Numbered from the stretch's first letter, positions 2,729 to 41,380 are shown. The stretch: DNA of 64,000 bases from Nitrosopumilus sp. (GCA_965223425.1 OZ245003.1:352001-416000); one strand, 5' to 3'. Notes: a model not told the origin generated them from the letters alone. Program-made: numbers and translations.

Positions 2729-3311
2729 GAAGGGAATCAGATGGCTGCATGAAATCAATCTGACAGAAGTTGACAGGATGGCAATGAACACATATCTTGA
2801 AAACATTGAGATGAATCAAAAACAGATTGACACATTTGAGACAAAGATTGCTACAATTAGCAACGAGGATGAAAGAACAAGACTAATCATGACAATACCT
2901 GGAATAAGCTATGTCACGGCACTGACAATAATATCCGAGATAGTTGATATTAACAGATTTGCAACAGTAGAGAAATTAGTGTCATATGCGGGACTTGCAC
3001 CATCACACAGAGACAGCGGAGAGACGCAAAAAGGAGGAGGCGGAATAACAAAACGGGGTTCTGCATGGCTGCGCAATGCAATGGTGGAGGCTGCAAACAC
3101 TACGATACGATTTGATCCAAGGATGGAATCATTTTATTCAAGAATTGCAAAAAGGAGAGGAAAACAAAAGGCAAGGATAGCAGCTGCAAGGCAGATGATG
3201 CTTGAGATAATCTGGTACATGCTAACAAACATGGAGGAATACCGCACACAGAATCACGAGTTGACGCAAAGAAAGTATAAGAAGATGCAGGACAAATCAG
3301 AAACGTCCTGA
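2729..3311 (+). pseudogene. IS110-family transposase, C-terminal half only
   Basis: TIPGISYVTALTIISEIVDINRF...YAGLAPSHRDSG...ITKRGSAWLR; the N-terminal DEDD domain is missing at the IS66 junction. Confidence 0.85.
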
Positions 3312-16221: not shown

Positions 16222-17366
16222 TAGTAAGTACATAAAAAACCTGAACCATTTTGACAATTATTTTTGGCCAAAAGATCCAAGACCGGCCATACCGCACACA
16301 CTGCATGTACAAACAAAAAAAGAGACAGGTTGCAAGGGGGGCAAAATTTCTGCCAAACACCGGCGTTGCAGACCTCAAAAAGGCATACAAAAAAGAGACC
16401 GATCCCAGAAGGCGCGACAGGCTGCTTGCGTACATGCAGCGCAAGGACGGCGTGCCGCTAGACAGGATTGGAAGGATGCTGGGAAGGCCCAGGTCCACCA
16501 TATCTGCATGGCTCAACCGCGCACAGGAAGAGGGAATGCGTGCAAGATTCGAGCGCAGCGGCAGGGGACGAAAGCACCTGCTAAACGGGCCGCAGGCAGG
16601 ACAGCTTGCAGCAGACCTGGATGCGGGGCCAGAATCATGCGGCTTTGAGAGCAGCCTGTGGGACTCCAACCTGGTAAGGCTGCACATCAAGCGAAAGTTC
16701 GGCGTGCAGTACAGCAAAACAGGCGCGCTGCAGCTGATCAGGGAGATGGGCTTTTCGTGGAGCAAGGCGCGTCCAAAAAACCCAAGATCAGCCTCAAAAA
16801 GAAAGCAAAAAGAGTTTCAGGGGCGAGCAAAAAAACTCGTTGCAGAAAAGTCGGCGCAGGGATACACCGTACTGGCCGGCGATGCATCCTCGATTGAAAA
16901 GGCACCAAACAGGCCCGGCTACGGGTGGAGAAGGCGCGGCAAGCGCGCCACATCCCCATCTTTTTTGTCACGCGAAAGAAGATACATCTTTGGAGCTTTG
17001 GCGGCAAGCGCATTTTACTTTATGTTTTATGAAAAGCCAGACAGCGACGGCTTTTGCAGCTTTTTGGAACGGGTTCACAAAAGATTCGGCAAGGTGGTGC
17101 TGCTGTTTGTAGACAATGCGTCATATCACAAATCCAAAAAGGTAAAAGAGTTTCTGGAAAGATACAACGGCGAGATAGTTCTGGAGTACCTGCTGCCGTA
17201 CACGCCGGAGCTTAATCCCATTGAGATGCAGTGGAGGGTGATAAAACGGGTACTGTCTGCAAAGGTGTTTGGCACGCTAGATGAGATGGAGCAGTCAGTA
17301 CGCACGCTGTTTGCCAGAAAGGAGATCCTGCCTGTGAAAATGTTCAATTATTTAATGTGCTAACTA
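16222..17366 (+). mobile_element. IS630-family element
   Basis: TA-flanked imperfect TIRs: TAGTAAGTACATAAAAAACCTGAAC vs reverse complement TAGTTAGCACATTAAATAATTGAAC. Confidence 0.8.
16305..17363 (+). CDS. IS630-family transposase
   Basis: HTH and winged HTH; GDAS, VDNASYH and LPYTPELNPIEMQW motifs. Confidence 0.9.
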   Translation: MYKQKKRQVARGAKFLPNTGVADLKKAYKKETDPRRRDRLLAYMQRKDGVPLDRIGRMLGRPRSTISAWLNRAQEEGMRARFERSGRGRKHLLNGPQAGQLAADLDAGPESCGFESSLWDSNLVRLHIKRKFGVQYSKTGALQLIREMGFSWSKARPKNPRSASKRKQKEFQGRAKKLVAEKSAQGYTVLAGDASSIEKAPNRPGYGWRRRGKRATSPSFLSRERRYIFGALAASAFYFMFYEKPDSDGFCSFLERVHKRFGKVVLLFVDNASYHKSKKVKEFLERYNGEIVLEYLLPYTPELNPIEMQWRVIKRVLSAKVFGTLDEMEQSVRTLFARKEILPVKMFNYLMC

Positions 17367-18541: not shown

Positions 18542-18802
18542 ATGATGTGCCAGCACCTTCCGCATATGTTTACGTTTGTCCAGTACGCCGGGGTGGAGCC
18601 TACTAACAACGCGTCGGAGAGGGCGCTGCGCTATCTGGTGGTGTTCCGGAAGATAAGCGGGCAGGCCAAGGGCGGCAGCAAGGCCATGAAGCGCCTTGGA
18701 GATTTTGTAAGCTGCGTCCTGACGTGGCAGAATCACGGCAAGAGCGTGGCGCAAGAGGTACAGAAAATGGTAGTCAACTGTTTAGAGTTTATGATAAATT
18801 GA
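18542..18802 (+). pseudogene. IS66 transposase C-terminal fragment
   Basis: GVEPTNNASERALRYLVVFRKISG. Confidence 0.85.
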
Positions 18803-18819: not shown

Positions 18820-19185
18820 GGTATCTAAGAGTTACATTGGAAATATGGCAAGATTGCAATCATGCTGGATAGAGCACCAGTTCACAAATCAAAGAAAGTT
18901 AAGGAATATCTTACAAATAATAGAGATGTCAAACTAATCTGGTTGCCAAAGGGATCGTCTTATCTAAACATGATAGAGCAGTGCTGGAAGACAAGCAAGT
19001 ATGCATTGTTAGTATCAGAATATTATACAATGTTTGCAATAATGAACAAAGCAGTCTCTGAATATTATACAATGTTTGCAATAATGAACAAAGCAGTCTC
19101 TGAATATTTTAGAGTGACACAGTTCAAGCTTGATGTTGCAAATTATATTTTTAGAAATCCTGCAAAGATGTTCACGAACTTTTGA
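18820..19185 (+). pseudogene. IS630 transposase C-terminal fragment with a 42-bp tandem duplication (19018..19101)
   Basis: LDRAPVH...LPKGSSYLNMIEQCW; EYYTMFAIMNKAVS occurs twice. Confidence 0.8.
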
Positions 19186-19330: not shown

Positions 19331-19566
19331 TTATTTGACAAGTCCATTGTCATAATCACTAATGAATTCATCCCTATCAATCATAATTTCACCCAACAAT
19401 CCTAAGAGCGTTCCAATTTTGAGCGTATTGTTTCCTGCAGGAACAGTTATGAATATGCTGTCTTTTCTCAGCCTTACATGACTCCCTTTCTGCCTTAATA
19501 TGATAAACCTTTTTTGGTAACATATTTTATCATCGTATTACCTGAGATTCTAGGAATCTTAGTCAT
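19331..19566 (-). pseudogene. hicA: HicA-family toxin, 1-nt frameshift
   Basis: MTKIPRISG...KKG / FIILRQKGSHVRL...ITVP...LKIGTL; overlaps the hicB stop (ATGA). Confidence 0.8.
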
Positions 19567-19781
19567 TTGTGATTCTGAACAATCAACATATTAAAATCAG
19601 TTATACCATCATCATCTTCTACTGACACTTCTACTGCTTCTTTCATATTTTCCATAATTTCTCCATATGTCTCGCCTTGTGAATAAGCATGTAGCTCATC
19701 ACATTTGCCTACAAAACCGCCATCAACTTTATCAGGTGTTATGATAATGGTGTATGTCTTTTTCTGTATTGTAGAACTCAT
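19563..19781 (-). CDS. hicB: HicB-family antitoxin
   Basis: YTIII..D..DGGF...C.EL.AYSQGET..E..ENMKEA. Confidence 0.85.
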   Translation of the reverse strand: MSSTIQKKTYTIIITPDKVDGGFVGKCDELHAYSQGETYGEIMENMKEAVEVSVEDDDGITDFNMLIVQNHK

Positions 19782-20075: not shown

Positions 20076-20579
20076 TTGCCAAAAAAATACTGTGTGACAG
20101 AAAAACTGCATGACTCACAGGTGCTTGACTATTTTGAGGTGACCATGAAAGACTTTATCGTGGAACGGCTATCTGACACGGATAACTGGTGGAACGCATG
20201 CATTCCTCCAGAGATAAGAGAAGATGCATCACAGAGACATCAAAGGACAAAGAAGATCAACGATGTCCTAAACAAGCCAGACTATGGAATAGTAGAATAC
20301 ATCAACTTTGATGGATATGAAAAGATAATATCAAGAAAGGATAACTGGAGGAATCACTTTGAGGCAGTCTTTGTCGACAAGACAGTATTTGAGTACAAGA
20401 TGCGAGTTGTACTGTCACTTAGAAACGACATTAGGCATGGGCGACAGCTTGATGAGATAAACAGGATCAGGCTTAGATTGCACTGCTATGACATACTCTC
20501 GCAGATATATGAAACAAGAAAAGCAGACAAAGATGCTCACAACGCTATGATAAAAAAACTCGGCTTCAAGACGGATTGA
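20076..20579 (+). CDS. Swt1-like HEPN domain protein
   Basis: WW...IP, NWRNHFEAVF and the RNDIRH (Rx4H) motif. Confidence 0.75.
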   Translation: MPKKYCVTEKLHDSQVLDYFEVTMKDFIVERLSDTDNWWNACIPPEIREDASQRHQRTKKINDVLNKPDYGIVEYINFDGYEKIISRKDNWRNHFEAVFVDKTVFEYKMRVVLSLRNDIRHGRQLDEINRIRLRLHCYDILSQIYETRKADKDAHNAMIKKLGFKTD

Positions 20580-21141: not shown

Positions 21142-22623
21142 TTACAGCGTAATTGAACCGTGTTGATTGACAGTGGTGACATTTGAATGCCATTTTTTAT
21201 GATACTCGTCCTTCTTTGTATGGATCGGGATCAGTGATTTGGCATTGGCATTATCTATCACATACTTGATTTGCTCCCCGTCTCCGTGACCAGAAACATG
21301 GATTTGGTTCCAATCCTCCTCTTTTTTGAGTACGCCAAAGTGAACAAACCAGTTTCTAACCTGCTCGTCTTTTAACTCCATTTCCACATCAAATGGTTCA
21401 GTCAGCGAACGAATGTATGTAGAGCCTTCGATGGGTTTTATGTCAATCAAGTCCTGCAATCTAAAGTCACTGCAAAAAAAGACGTACTGGTTTTGTTTTT
21501 TCTTGATATCCATATAGTTGACCGCGTTTGGATAGCCTAAAAATTCCTGTTGCCAAATCCTATAGTCTGCAAGTAGCTGCTTTTCTGAAAATATGTCAAC
21601 ATTCTTATCAATTAATCCCCAAGAACCCCTCTGAACGTATATTTTGATATTTTTGTCAGTTGGAGATGGATATTTGCCCCTTAAGGATTCTGACTCGTTA
21701 AACAATTTCAGCAGATATGCCTGCTTCATATCTATTACTAGATCTCGGTTACTGTTTTTTGTTGCGATGTAAAATGATAATAGCCTGTCAAGATCCCTGA
21801 CAGGATAACCGCAAATCGCCAAGCCTTTTGTCTTTTTTACAATGTCTGCAACCTTGGATTCGACGTCATACTCTGTATCTGACGGTCTTGCATCAACCCT
21901 AGTTCCCTCACACAGTAATACATCCAAATCTGATTCTGCGCAGCGCCGTACAAAATTTTCTGTATCGTCTTTTCGCCTGCCGTGAAACCGTAAATCGCCC
22001 GTATTGCCAATGGAGCCGTCTGGCGTATGCAAAATAAATGCGTGAACTCCAGGTATTGAATGATCAACAGGTAGTGGTTCTGCCCTGATTGAGTCAATTG
22101 AGAATTCCCTCCCTGATTGAAACGTTTTGATTCTTCTGGGAACCGCAGTTTTGTCTCCACGGGATCTGATTTTTTCTCCCATTTTATTTTCATGAACCTG
22201 AAAATTTTCTTTTAGTGTAAGGTATTGATCAGAGCCTGTATCCTCAAAGTTCTGCATGATTAGTTTTGATTCTTCAGAACAGTAAATTGGAATATCGTCT
22301 CTGAGGTATGGAATGTATGCACAATGGTCAACATGTGCATGTGTAAGCAGCACTGCGTCAATTTCTGTATCCTCGTGTCCGTCAAAACCCATGTGTCTGG
22401 CATAGTCCCGCCTGTAGAGACCCTTGATTTTAGGCAATATTCCAAGTTCAAACATATCAATTAGGCTATTTGATGTTCTAGCCTTCAAAAACTGTGAGAA
22501 AAATTGCCCCTCTTCTGAGAAGGACATTCCAAAATCCATGAAAATTTTTGTTCCTTTGCTTTCAACTAGGAATTTGTTTCCGCCAATATCGTTTACGCCT
22601 CCATGAAATGTGATGCTTGTCAT
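21142..22623 (-). CDS. Metallo-beta-lactamase/beta-CASP ribonuclease (RNase J-like)
   Basis: GGVNDIGGN, DFG, THAHVDH, VDHS, TGDLRFHG, CEGT, HVSGH and IPIH motifs. Confidence 0.9.
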   Translation of the reverse strand: MTSITFHGGVNDIGGNKFLVESKGTKIFMDFGMSFSEEGQFFSQFLKARTSNSLIDMFELGILPKIKGLYRRDYARHMGFDGHEDTEIDAVLLTHAHVDHCAYIPYLRDDIPIYCSEESKLIMQNFEDTGSDQYLTLKENFQVHENKMGEKIRSRGDKTAVPRRIKTFQSGREFSIDSIRAEPLPVDHSIPGVHAFILHTPDGSIGNTGDLRFHGRRKDDTENFVRRCAESDLDVLLCEGTRVDARPSDTEYDVESKVADIVKKTKGLAICGYPVRDLDRLLSFYIATKNSNRDLVIDMKQAYLLKLFNESESLRGKYPSPTDKNIKIYVQRGSWGLIDKNVDIFSEKQLLADYRIWQQEFLGYPNAVNYMDIKKKQNQYVFFCSDFRLQDLIDIKPIEGSTYIRSLTEPFDVEMELKDEQVRNWFVHFGVLKKEEDWNQIHVSGHGDGEQIKYVIDNANAKSLIPIHTKKDEYHKKWHSNVTTVNQHGSITL

Positions 22624-22967
22624 ATGTCTACACTTCCAGAATGTCTGTAAAATGTGAATCGGTGGTTTCTGACCCTGTGTCTAATTCTGCTGCACAATTT
22701 CAGTCCTATCTTTATAAAGTTGTCCTCAATGCCAAACTGCTCAAAAACTCTTCTCAAAAAATAACTTCTTGTAAATGAGACTGTTGCATAAACAGACGTA
22801 ATTACCAAGTTTGCAGTCAGAGGATCCTCTTGAATCCAGCCTGTGGATAACGGCAGAATAATAATTCCCAAACCGTATCCTATTGGATATCCGCCAAACG
22901 AATTGACAAACGCTTCTGATAGACTCTTCTTGTGAGAATCCAATTCAACCTCTTTTACTGTGGACAT
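22620..22967 (-). CDS. Small 2-TM membrane protein
   Basis: S.KKSLSEAFVN...GY.IG...VSFTRSYFLRRVFE; ATGA overlap with the RNase gene. Confidence 0.75.
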   Translation of the reverse strand: MSTVKEVELDSHKKSLSEAFVNSFGGYPIGYGLGIIILPLSTGWIQEDPLTANLVITSVYATVSFTRSYFLRRVFEQFGIEDNFIKIGLKLCSRIRHRVRNHRFTFYRHSGSVDI

Positions 22968-23065
22968 TCTAATCTCCCCGTCTGACGTGACCTTTTGTTG
23001 TCTGGTTCTTCAAAAATGATGGATGCGCATTTGCGGTATTGCAGCTGAATTTCTGCCAGTTTCAT
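22955..23065 (-). CDS. 36-aa micro-ORF
   Basis: MKLAEIQLQYRKCASIIFEEPDNKRSRQTGRLECPQ; ATGA-coupled to the upstream micro-ORF. Confidence 0.35.
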   Translation of the reverse strand: MKLAEIQLQYRKCASIIFEEPDNKRSRQTGRLECPQ

Positions 23066-23163
23066 CTTCCTCCTCTTCCTCTTCTTCCCTCATAAATCAT
23101 TGGCTCTTCATCTTTATCATCGTCTTCAAACTCTCGAATTATTCTTGGATACATCAAGGTCAT
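23062..23163 (-). CDS. 33-aa acidic micro-ORF
   Basis: MTLMYPRIIREFEDDDKDEEPMIYEGRRGRGGR; starts 2 nt after the PIN stop. Confidence 0.4.
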   Translation of the reverse strand: MTLMYPRIIREFEDDDKDEEPMIYEGRRGRGGR

Positions 23164-23165
23164 TT

Positions 23166-23585
23166 TTAGATACCTCTTACCGTTGATGGGTGAAATGCTG
23201 TAACGCCGACAAACTGACAAGTCTGGAGAAGCATCCTGTCAAAAGTCACTAGGACAAAGCCATTTGCTTTGCATAAACTCAATATTTTATTGTCCCCATT
23301 ATGACAAATCTGGAACTGTTCTGTGATCTGCTTTGCATTTGAAATGTCATTTTGATCAATTTTGGAAAGTTCGATCTTTCTTCCTAACAGGCCTGAAATT
23401 TTGGCAATTATTTTTTCAGGCAAATGTCCCCGTACTCGTTTTACCTCCCCTAGCACAACGTCACAAAGAATGATTCTGACTGATTTTCCCCTCAAGCCGG
23501 CTTTGAGTCTAGATGCTACTCCTGGTTTCTCCATGATGTCAATTACGACGCAAGAATCCAAAGCTACGTTTTGCATCTTGTTCAT
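23166..23585 (-). CDS. PIN-domain (VapC-like) ribonuclease
   Basis: ALDSCVVID, VLGEV, GDNKIL and LVTFDRML acidic tetrad. Confidence 0.85.
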   Translation of the reverse strand: MNKMQNVALDSCVVIDIMEKPGVASRLKAGLRGKSVRIILCDVVLGEVKRVRGHLPEKIIAKISGLLGRKIELSKIDQNDISNAKQITEQFQICHNGDNKILSLCKANGFVLVTFDRMLLQTCQFVGVTAFHPSTVRGI

Positions 23586-23593
23586 GAATTAAC

Positions 23594-23645
23594 CCAGATC
23601 TGGAAAATTATTATATAGTATGTACATAGTATACATATTCCAGAT
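23594..23645. promoter_or_regulatory. Palindromic divergent promoter/operator
   Basis: TATGTACATA palindrome (23619-23628) flanked by TATA on both sides and by the ATCTGGAA/TTCCAGAT inverted repeat. Confidence 0.6.
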
Positions 23646-23648
23646 ACT

Positions 23649-24395
23649 ATGGTTAAAATTGCGAAATTACGCATACATGTTGCCCCCGTAGGCTATGAAA
23701 TCGACAGGATCGTCCTTCCTGCAAAGCAGGAAAAGGCCGACAAGGTATGGCTGCTGATTCACGAAAATAGGAGCGAAGACAAGGCAGTCCCGTTTATCTC
23801 AAAAATTACAAGACAATTAGAAAAATCAGGAATTGAGACAGTTCAGGAATCTCATAACAGGCGTGATTTATTTCAAATTATTCGTACGGTGAAAAACATT
23901 CTGGAAAAAGAAAAGCAAAATGACGTCTATGTTAATTTGGCATCCGGCTCCAAAATACAAGCAATTGGAACCATGATGGCATGCATGATGTTCAATGATG
24001 ACTCTAACATCCATCCGTTTTATGTGGAGGCAAAAAATTATCCTGGATTTGAAGGAAAAACGCCACTATCTACAGGAATTAAAGAAATCCAAAATGTTCC
24101 ACCCTATTCCATAAAAATACCTGATCAAAAATTAGTTGCGGCGTTAAAAATCATTAAGGAGAATGGTGGAGAAATCACAAAAAAACAAATGGCAGATTTG
24201 GCCGAAAAACATGATCTAATCTCTGTCAATGCAAGAGATGAGGAACACCGCTCCATGGTAAGGTTCACTAGTCTTGACAAGAATATTATTCAGCCGCTAG
24301 AAGAATGGGGATTTGTTAAAATCAAAAAAATTGGAAGAAACAGATGGATAAAAATGACTCAGGAAGGACAAAATGCCTCAGAATTTTTAATTTAA
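23649..24395 (+). CDS. DUF6293/HFX_2341-like regulator: CARF-like domain plus winged HTH
   Basis: IHVAPVGYEIDRI, ADKVWL, VYVNLASGSK; C-terminal ITKKQMADL...IIQPLEEWGFVKIKKIGR..IKMTQEG. Confidence 0.8.
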   Translation: MVKIAKLRIHVAPVGYEIDRIVLPAKQEKADKVWLLIHENRSEDKAVPFISKITRQLEKSGIETVQESHNRRDLFQIIRTVKNILEKEKQNDVYVNLASGSKIQAIGTMMACMMFNDDSNIHPFYVEAKNYPGFEGKTPLSTGIKEIQNVPPYSIKIPDQKLVAALKIIKENGGEITKKQMADLAEKHDLISVNARDEEHRSMVRFTSLDKNIIQPLEEWGFVKIKKIGRNRWIKMTQEGQNASEFLI

Positions 24396-41015: not shown

Positions 41016-41380
41016 TTATCTTGTTGCTTTTCTAGTATCTAATTCTATCAAACCTTTGATTTTATTTTTTTCTAAATCCATCTTGATTCCAGCTTGTTCT
41101 GCGGGGGTCTTACCCAAGCTTGAATGTTCTCTTACAAAGTTGTAATGAATCCTCATGGCTTCAATTAATTTCTGTGAAGATTCTCTAGTGTTCATACTAC
41201 GCATTACTTTTTCTCTGTCTCTCATAGTTCTGTTAAGGTGTTCTACCCTAGAGTTTAATCTCTCGTTTCTTACTGATATACTTCGAATATTTTTTACTCT
41301 AGGATTTTTCATTGCATGAAATTCCTTTTGAAATGCCTTGTCATAAGAGAAAAGCCCATTCTTCCAAGCACATTAGTCAT
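41016..41380 (-). pseudogene. IS6-family transposase remnant (internally deleted)
   Basis: GLFSYDKAF...NSRVEHLNRTMRDREK...HYNFVREHSSLGKTPAEQAG. Confidence 0.75.

Follow-up and report, generated by a model that had tools for sequence, protein, structure and literature searches.

A CARF-wHTH regulator of Nitrosopumilaceae with a family-restricted micropeptide as promoter partner

The 64,000-nt stretch of Nitrosopumilus sp. DNA analyzed here (GCA_965223425.1 OZ245003.1:352001-416000; hereafter the window) holds at 21142-24395 a locus in which a regulator with a CARF domain and a winged helix-turn-helix (wHTH) domain is divergent from a unit that encodes a VapC-like PIN-domain protein and a previously unannotated micropeptide. 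We favor, with moderate confidence, a model in which this locus is a Nitrosopumilaceae-specific module whose ligand-gated, autoregulated CARF regulator would control a mosaic, leaderless operon with the micropeptide at its core. The regulator family is already known, as are stand-alone regulators of this kind without CRISPR. What is new is the family-restricted micropeptide as a dedicated promoter partner, together with the recurrent PIN and DUF7220 cargo, and our literature searches brought up no account of the module for ammonia oxidizers. All six genes named in the original prediction for this locus were recovered in place, and the five divergent open reading frames (ORFs) indeed abut or overlap: the TAA stop of the PIN gene (23168-23166) is separated by 2 nt from the micropeptide ATG, as read from the sequence, the micropeptide stop and the start of a 36-aa ORF share an ATGA overlap, the 36-aa ORF runs 13 nt into the 115-aa ORF, and the latter in turn shares 4 nt with the 493-aa ORF.

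The regulator (23649-24395, + strand, 248 aa) can be assigned confidently as a CARF plus winged-helix protein of the HFX_2341/DUF6293 family. Its Pfam domains, HFX_2341_N (PF19810, 126.9 bits, cut-off 30) and DUF6293_C (PF22665, 79.1 bits, cut-off 27), are accompanied by weaker Csa3_N and Card1-CARF matches, and it matches the PADLOC model PDLC01847 with E 2e-78; the label 'CARF3' for this Csa3-like protein follows the PADLOC model names. In Foldseek searches with its AlphaFold model (predicted local distance difference test [pLDDT] 90.1, predicted template modeling score [pTM] 0.82), the best PDB matches were the Csm6 CARF domain and Csa3-cA4 (Csa3 with cyclic tetra-adenylate; E 7e-9 for these two), Can2, Card1 and the CARF-wHTH ring nucleases Sso1393/Sis0811. 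CARF pockets are marked by a glycine motif after strand 1 and by [DN]-x-[ST]-x-G-x-K after strand 4. The corresponding motifs in the regulator are APVG[YF]E and N96-L-A-S-G100-S-K102, and since R8, R20, N96, G100 and K102 are invariant in an alignment of 47 regulator sequences (A2), NLASGSK is read as the canonical CARF loop. Pfam, Foldseek, the conserved N-x-S-G-S-K loop and the C-terminal winged helix thus all bear out the original description of a CARF-like, DUF6293-like regulator. Of 100 genomes sampled from the family Nitrosopumilaceae, 46 encode relatives, in the genera Nitrosopumilus, Nitrosarchaeum, Nitrosotenuis, Nitrosotalea, Cenarchaeum and Nitrosopelagicus. Among the cultured carriers are Ca. 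Nitrosopumilus salarius BD31, Ca. Nitrosotenuis chungbukensis MY2, Ca. Nitrosotalea bavarica SBT1 and Nitrosarchaeum sp. BD3. The closest sampled relatives (72-76% identical) are scattered over Nitrosopumilus and Nitrosarchaeum, and other genomes of the same genus carry versions that are just 48-50% identical.

By its profile scores, the regulator is neither Csa3 proper nor an orthologue of HFX_2341. It shares with Csa3a and Csa3b of Sulfolobales (PDB 2wte, 6wxq, 6w11) the CARF plus wHTH fold and a pocket motif of the cA4-binding type. However, it reaches only 30 bits on the Csa3 model TIGR01884 (cut-off 60.2), has no adjacent cas genes, resides in a genome in which no Cas10 was detected, and has the micropeptide and PIN genes rather than cas genes at its promoter. 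With HFX_2341 of Haloferax mediterranei, the one protein of this Pfam architecture that has been studied, the regulator has in common the architecture and the stand-alone CARF-wHTH organization without a CRISPR link, whereas its score on the corresponding NCBIfam equivalog, NF051475, is 16.7 bits against a cut-off of 500. As portrayed in the main text of the paper describing it, HFX_2341 is a vertically inherited, experimentally demonstrated repressor of many genes that is genomically unlinked to CRISPR and present in CRISPR-less species; that main text describes no divergent operon of micropeptide, PIN and DUF7220 genes (PMC11434293). The ancillary CARF effectors of type III systems (Csm6, Can2, Card1 and the ring nucleases) provide the best structural matches of the regulator's CARF domain and likewise couple a nucleotide sensor to nucleases. 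In the regulator, by contrast, the partner domain of the sensor is a DNA-binding domain instead of a nuclease, the nucleases are encoded by separate genes, and no oligoadenylate cyclase was found.

The regulator and the PIN gene are separated by a bidirectional promoter region of 63 bp (23586-23648). Four inverted repeats lie within it, and its palindromic operator motif is conserved, so that the divergent, palindromic arrangement proposed at the outset holds. The region includes a TATA element, AATTATTATATA, at 23606-23617, and a predicted operator, ATAGTATACATATTCCAGATACTAT, at 23626-23650 that extends into the ATG of the regulator. Its layout is common to 37 aligned upstream regions, which read, in order, divergent start codon, about 20 nt, AATTATTATATA, 8 nt, ATAGTATGCATACT, 4-5 nt, ATACTAT and the ATG of the regulator. 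Judging from TATA-to-ATG distances of about 20-36 nt and from standard archaeal promoter geometry, both mRNAs would be leaderless or nearly so. With a position weight matrix (PWM) for the operator, the site at 23626-23650 scores 25.0 bits and no other position of the 2.64-Mb genome exceeds 16.9, such that the scan of the window's own genome yielded no second convincing operator site.

Csa3 proteins have palindromic promoter sites near the genes they regulate. It is appealing to propose that the regulator, presumably as a dimer, would bind the palindrome ATAGTATGCATACT along with ATACTAT as a third half-site. Because the palindrome is located between the shared TATA element and the start codon of the regulator, binding would, from the same promoter geometry, be expected to repress transcription of the regulator's own gene. 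The same site lies just upstream of the TATA element and B recognition element (BRE) of the opposite promoter and could therefore gate the divergent unit as well. Three orphan cassettes located away from any regulator gene, a PIN-micropeptide pair (G033:C5), a PIN-DUF7220 pair (in G001) and a lone micropeptide (G063:C272), all retain an operator-like palindrome and a TATA element upstream. Their retention argues for control in trans by the regulator and for a palindrome that is part of the PIN/micropeptide promoter as well as of the regulator's own. A variant palindrome, TAGTATGAATACTA, occurs once or twice per genome off the regulator locus in one genus, in each of the five genomes sampled from it (G064, G082, G042, G017 and G099).

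The micropeptide is encoded directly behind the PIN gene (23062-23163, - strand, 33 aa, core MYPRIIREFEDDDKDEEPMIY), with its ATG at 23163-23161 and its stop at 23064-23062; the longest ORF in the same frame has 52 aa and starts at a TTG. It was recognized by hidden Markov model (HMM) and motif matches as one of a family of acidic peptides of 24-45 aa with the core [YF]P[RK]IIREF[DE]D..EPM.Y, for which Pfam, PADLOC and NCBIfam have no family match. In 29 aligned sequences, ten codons are free of gaps; their entropy is 0.49 at the first, 0.69 at the second and 1.50 at the third position, and both arginines are encoded by AGR as well as by CGN codons. By this substitution pattern, the micropeptide is a real, coding gene. 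A six-frame search of whole genomes (alignment A1) located it in 33 of the 100 family genomes; each of these belongs to the 46 that carry the regulator, and the 54 that do not carry it have no copy. These counts take in the unpublished genomes G077 and G092, without which the regulator is present in 44 and the micropeptide in 31 of 98 genomes. In a sample of the phylum, the micropeptide was detected in 15 of 43 genomes of the family and in none of 257 genomes of other families. Among 1.84 billion proteins in metagenome sets, its profile matched 111 cluster representatives at E <= 0.001, of which 94 have at most 77 aa and 14 were inspected.

Other searches with the micropeptide provided no lead. 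A protein word-index search with the 52-aa form of the ORF returned no candidate, an ESM Atlas search had a top score of 0.81, a PDB profile search with the alignment gave nothing, and a scan of viral contigs with the alignment produced 20 pattern matches, none of which was confirmed. A complex prediction with two copies of the regulator and the micropeptide scored 0.00, which is uninformative either way. A weak second match in the window's genome (C1:1694853, E 1.7e-4) was discarded since the motif proved absent on inspection, and an apparent PIN-micropeptide fusion in high-GC genomes was rejected because the reading frames differ. Five longer proteins among the cluster representatives (P0091, P0093, P0094, P0100 and P0103) carry KKPT-[MI]FPRI[IR]REF-E/P-DEKDEDPM[VI]Y near the N-terminus. 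With such a protein as query, 80 viral-contig loci were fetched. In one of them, from a tailed virus, a highly charged protein of 402 aa (L177:6001-7209, IMGVR_UViG_3300022933_000006) has the micropeptide motif FPRIIREFPDEKDEDPMIY near its N-terminus, and its ORF directly follows the gene for the large terminase. The closest named virus by terminase is Halogranum tailed virus 1 (30.5% identity, E 2e-37), and terminase relatives with 38-39% identity occur in two of the 100 family genomes. Given this likeness to an archaeal virus and the relatives in family genomes, the virus is probably archaeal.

How closely these genes are tied to the regulator was assessed in two overlapping neighborhood censuses. 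The first covered 8 kb on either side of 47 loci (44 genomes) plus the window, that is 48 loci, and the second the 80 best of 266 relatives from a genome collection with flanks of 1.5 kb on either side. The micropeptide is the most constant neighbor. It is present at 32 of the 48 loci, 21 times by six-frame HMM search (divergent from the regulator), eight times by regular expression and three times by eye; the short form, V[YF]P[RK][IV][KR]S[IV]F[ED]-stop, was found by a regular expression written after that form had been seen. The PIN gene follows with 17, DUF7220 with 5 and a beta-CASP gene within 8 kb with 4 of the 48 loci. In the second census, the micropeptide occurs at 56, the PIN gene at 26 and DUF7220 at 25 of the 80 loci. 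At least one of the three is found at 74 of them, and the six loci that lack all three include one with just 146 bp upstream. PIN and micropeptide occur together at 9/48 and 15/80 loci. Where the regulator reaches 48% identity, which is so at 40 loci, the first divergent gene always encodes the micropeptide, the PIN protein or DUF7220, and this holds for none of the eight more distant paralogues. A Rad50-like gene is located about 3 kb off at three of the 48 loci and about 8 kb off at a fourth, and the window has none. The original prediction had joined all five divergent genes into one coupled operon. Co-occurrence holds for PIN, micropeptide and DUF7220, which recur beside the regulator, but not for the beta-CASP gene, which lies within 5 kb of the regulator in three of 100 other family genomes and shares the gene order of the window in one (G022). 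Judged by these neighborhoods, the five-gene set is not a conserved unit.

The PIN protein (23166-23585, - strand, 139 aa), the lead gene product of the divergent unit, matches PF01850 with 29.7 bits (cut-off 23.6). Its acidic tetrad D10, E47, D98 and D116 is invariant among 15 orthologues (alignment A3), and VapC toxins are the top fold matches of its model (pLDDT 92.8), with template modeling (TM) scores of 0.64-0.70. The subfamily also has invariant C12, H95 and C105 and a nearly invariant C94, and these four residues may make up an additional metal site. With an identity of 44% or more, close orthologues of the PIN protein are present in 11 of the 100 genomes, in 10 of which they adjoin the regulator.

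The last two genes of the unit encode the 115-aa DUF7220 small protein (22620-22967, - strand; PF23858, 61.5 bits, cut-off 28) and the 493-aa metallo-beta-lactamase (MBL) nuclease of the beta-CASP group (21142-22623, - strand), which is EF2904/RNase J-like. The former had been described as a two-transmembrane protein. Two hydrophobic segments do exist, but with Kyte-Doolittle maxima of 1.5 and 1.3 over 15 aa they are only moderately hydrophobic, and membrane insertion is plausible at most. DUF7220 is encoded in 13 of the 100 family genomes, in five at the regulator locus and in one beside an orphan PIN gene. The 493-aa protein has Lactamase_B_2 and RMMBL domains (the latter with 23 bits, cut-off 21.6), and with HAHVDH, PVDHS, TGD, CEGT, HVSGH and PIHT, which also stand out when it is aligned to EF2904 and RNase J, it carries MBL motifs 1-4 and beta-CASP motifs A-C, so that the full set of metal ligands ascribed to it earlier is there. 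It stays below the subfamily cut-offs of RNase J (TIGR00649, 59.8 bits against 400) and aCPSF1 (39 against 580), and its best match in a PDB sequence search is the uncharacterized EF2904 (2az4, E 2.8e-25), with RNase J at 1e-9. Beta-CASP relatives are present in 31 of the 100 family genomes, 10 of which are regulator-negative, and none of 18 fetched beta-CASP loci of other genomes has DUF7220 beside it. At six of the 18 (L096, L097, L100, L105, L108 and L109), the neighbors are an EcoO109I restriction-modification pair, HsdM, GmrSD, EVE-GmrSD-Schlafen, HNH or Schlafen genes. Such restriction-type neighbors indicate that the beta-CASP gene behaves as a defense-island resident in its own right, and they suggest that its orthologues constitute an uncharacterized, EF2904-related family of defense-island nucleases. 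At the regulator locus, as its distribution reads, the beta-CASP gene is lineage-specific local cargo.

A comparison with G330, a genome of the same genus, is informative about the origin of the operon. There, the regulator (68% identical) is divergent from a PIN gene (68%), the micropeptide, six small ORFs (36, 93, 74, 64, 84 and 68 aa, several of which recur at other loci) and DUF7220 (76%), without a beta-CASP gene. The window lacks about 1.2 kb of these small ORFs and has in their place the 36-aa ORF (22955-23065, - strand). The N-terminal part of this ORF matches the 93-aa ORF of G330 in 13 of 29 residues (E 1e-5 in a single comparison), its end, GRLECPQ*, aligns with the end of the 68-aa ORF, and the 47 loci yielded no tblastn match to it. 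Since it joins a piece of the 93-aa gene to the end of the 68-aa ORF, the 36-aa ORF is best read as an in-frame deletion scar and is probably a remnant rather than an independent gene. Of the two micropeptides originally proposed, the 33-aa one has thus held up as conserved and coding, and the 36-aa one has not. The small ORFs that recur between micropeptide and DUF7220 (L201:8833-10175; L037, L034, L051) have no Pfam match and include an 'MK.TR.LPK' protein of 55-93 aa, a zinc-ribbon protein of 64-69 aa and a membrane protein of 74-84 aa. The scattered distribution of the closest regulator relatives and the insertion sequence (IS) copies that flank the locus suggest that the cassette moves between genomes.

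In the model that we favor, the regulator would respond to a small ligand that its strictly conserved CARF pocket accommodates. What the divergent unit conserves as cargo is the micropeptide, often placed after a VapC-like PIN RNase and before DUF7220. The cassette of the window, in an IS-rich island, would have been deprived of about 1.2 kb of small ORFs, with the 36-aa scar as the trace of this loss, and would have gained a beta-CASP gene coupled to DUF7220. Binding of DNA by the regulator and the direction in which it acts are predicted from promoter layout; the micropeptide may modulate the PIN protein or the regulator itself, and the outcome would be regulated RNA cleavage in stress, dormancy or defense. 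A defense or toxin-antitoxin role of the module is plausible. Several observations weigh against this model. The PIN gene occurs without the micropeptide at 8/48 loci and the micropeptide without a close PIN gene at 22/48 (41/80). A fixed stoichiometric partnership is thus not supported. Allowing one mismatch, the 14-nt palindrome has 44 sites in the 100 genomes versus 45 for the reversed control, which is no enrichment; 15 of the 44 sites are at regulator or micropeptide loci, and five of the six exact copies are at regulator loci. The argument for an operator function therefore comes entirely from positional conservation. In the PIN/micropeptide direction, the operator is upstream of the TATA element, so that activation, repression and no effect are all possible there. 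Moreover, related genomes are not independent, and the co-occurrence counts overstate the support.

It is possible, if rather unlikely, that the locus is a split toxin-antitoxin-like module for stress dormancy or addiction, in which the PIN protein is the toxin, the micropeptide a minimal antitoxin that plugs it, and the CARF-wHTH protein replaces VapB in DNA binding and autoregulation. Like VapBC, the locus has a PIN protein with a VapC fold and four invariant acidic residues that leave the catalytic tetrad intact, a coupled small ORF just 2 nt behind the PIN stop, and a predicted autoregulated promoter nearby. PIN and micropeptide also sit together at the 9/48 and 15/80 loci mentioned above, and on G033:C5 they form a pair away from any regulator. 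As the PIN gene comes first after the promoter, no VapB-type gene lies upstream of it, as this scenario would have it. However, VapBC systems have a DNA-binding antitoxin of the VapB type, which is missing here, and the small ORF is downstream, is only 24-45 aa long and mostly occurs without a PIN gene. Indeed, the loci at which the micropeptide stands without a close PIN gene, including clades with housekeeping synteny in which it is monocistronic, and those at which the PIN gene stands without the micropeptide, tell against a toxin with its antitoxin, and an acidic peptide would seem ill suited to plug the active site of a PIN protein, which is acidic as well.

A general physiological and possibly global regulator, inherited vertically, with the micropeptide as its sole dedicated neighbor, is quite unlikely. 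PIN, DUF7220, the small ORFs and the beta-CASP gene would then be insertions at a permissive site, in keeping with the highly variable cargo downstream of the micropeptide and with the IS copies that flank the locus. HFX_2341 offers a precedent, being reported as a vertically inherited global repressor (PMC11434293). Moreover, the regulator and the micropeptide are embedded together among syntenic housekeeping genes in several genera, and this synteny is conserved in the clade with the short-form micropeptide. Vertical inheritance of a regulator, as with HFX_2341, would account for such a setting no less well than a defense module would. Yet insertions at a permissive site do not readily explain why the PIN gene (26/80) and DUF7220 (25/80) recur at one promoter in many genera, and the orphan PIN and PIN-DUF7220 cassettes that keep the operator argue for a functional linkage. 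Nor does the absence of a second strong operator site from the window's genome suggest a global regulon.

A fixed five-gene antiviral system for RNA degradation or abortive infection, made up of the PIN protein, two micropeptides, a membrane effector and an RNase J-like nuclease and induced by a cyclic nucleotide through a cyclic oligoadenylate-responsive CARF regulator, is very unlikely. The CARF fold that best matches cA4-binding proteins, the abutting or overlapping ORFs, the island with its IS elements, HEPN (PDC-M34B) and HicB-like genes, the restriction and GmrSD genes beside beta-CASP relatives and the micropeptide-like motif in a tailed-virus protein are offset by the rarity of the beta-CASP gene near the regulator (3/100 other genomes), by the 10 beta-CASP-positive genomes without a regulator, by the 36-aa scar, by the synteny of the core pair with housekeeping genes in several genera, by four effector-side proteins without a PADLOC system match and by the failure to find a Cas10 palm or SMODS cyclase in the genome. 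Speculative at best is a scenario in which the micropeptide, not the nucleases, would be the real output of a CRISPR-independent CARF pathway: a short linear motif that has a conserved host factor as its docking partner and competes with or mimics a viral motif once the regulator senses a nucleotide of infection or stress, with PIN, DUF7220 and beta-CASP as add-ons.

It is for sensing the second messengers of type III CRISPR systems that CARF domains are best known. As a source of cyclic oligoadenylate, neither a Cas10 palm domain (palm2) nor a SMODS cyclase was detected in the window's genome; a ligand made by Cas10 is unlikely. A strictly conserved CARF pocket is kept across a globally important family of nitrifying archaea, in the window's genome without a detectable messenger synthase, and it is linked to a promoter that has an unannotated micropeptide as its conserved product. 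Once found, the ligand and the partner of the peptide would open a CRISPR-independent branch of CARF signaling and add one of the few defined regulatory circuits in ammonia-oxidizing archaea. The 33 family genomes and 111 metagenome cluster representatives with copies of the micropeptide also illustrate that annotation misses a whole family of small proteins.

Housekeeping genes border the roughly 11 kb around the locus (15.4-26.6 kb). Apart from the locus itself, this segment contains a HicB-like ORF and a Swt1-type HEPN gene along with one IS630-type transposase and two fragments of transposases. As had been stated, the window is free of cas genes, arrays and cyclases: none of these gene families appeared among its 84 ORFs run through Pfam, and no CRISPR-like tandem array was seen in the 64 kb. 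Nor did PADLOC-DB 2.0 have a family match for the PIN protein, both small ORFs, DUF7220 or the beta-CASP protein, and thus no known defense system matches; the regulator matches CARF models only. About 1 Mb from the regulator, however, the same genome carries a type I-B CRISPR-Cas locus that includes a long array. It lies at G000:C1 ~1.357-1.371 Mb (L093, L094), encodes Cas4, Cas1, Cas7/Csh2, Cas5b and Cas3, and adjoins a chain of about 74 spaced repeats into which IS5 and ISH3 transposases are interspersed; position 1379849 holds a second Cas1 fragment. The genome as a whole is about 1 Mb larger than those of same-genus relatives. Just past the beta-CASP gene lie the HicB-like small ORF (19563-19781, - strand), a weak match (E 0.033), and the Swt1-type HEPN gene (20076-20579, + strand), which matches the PADLOC candidate PDC-M34B with E 3e-15. 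IS elements or fragments (IS66, IS110, IS630/DDE_3, rve_3) are at 1339-2712, 2778-3311, 16251-17363, 18542-18802, 18862-19185 and 41016-41312, and a DDE_3 fragment contains a 42-bp tandem duplication (19011-19108). Finally, a 413-aa ORF without a Pfam match (31-1272) harbors at 862-1015 a 21-nt tandem repeat of 7.4 copies with super-periods of 42 and 63 nt.

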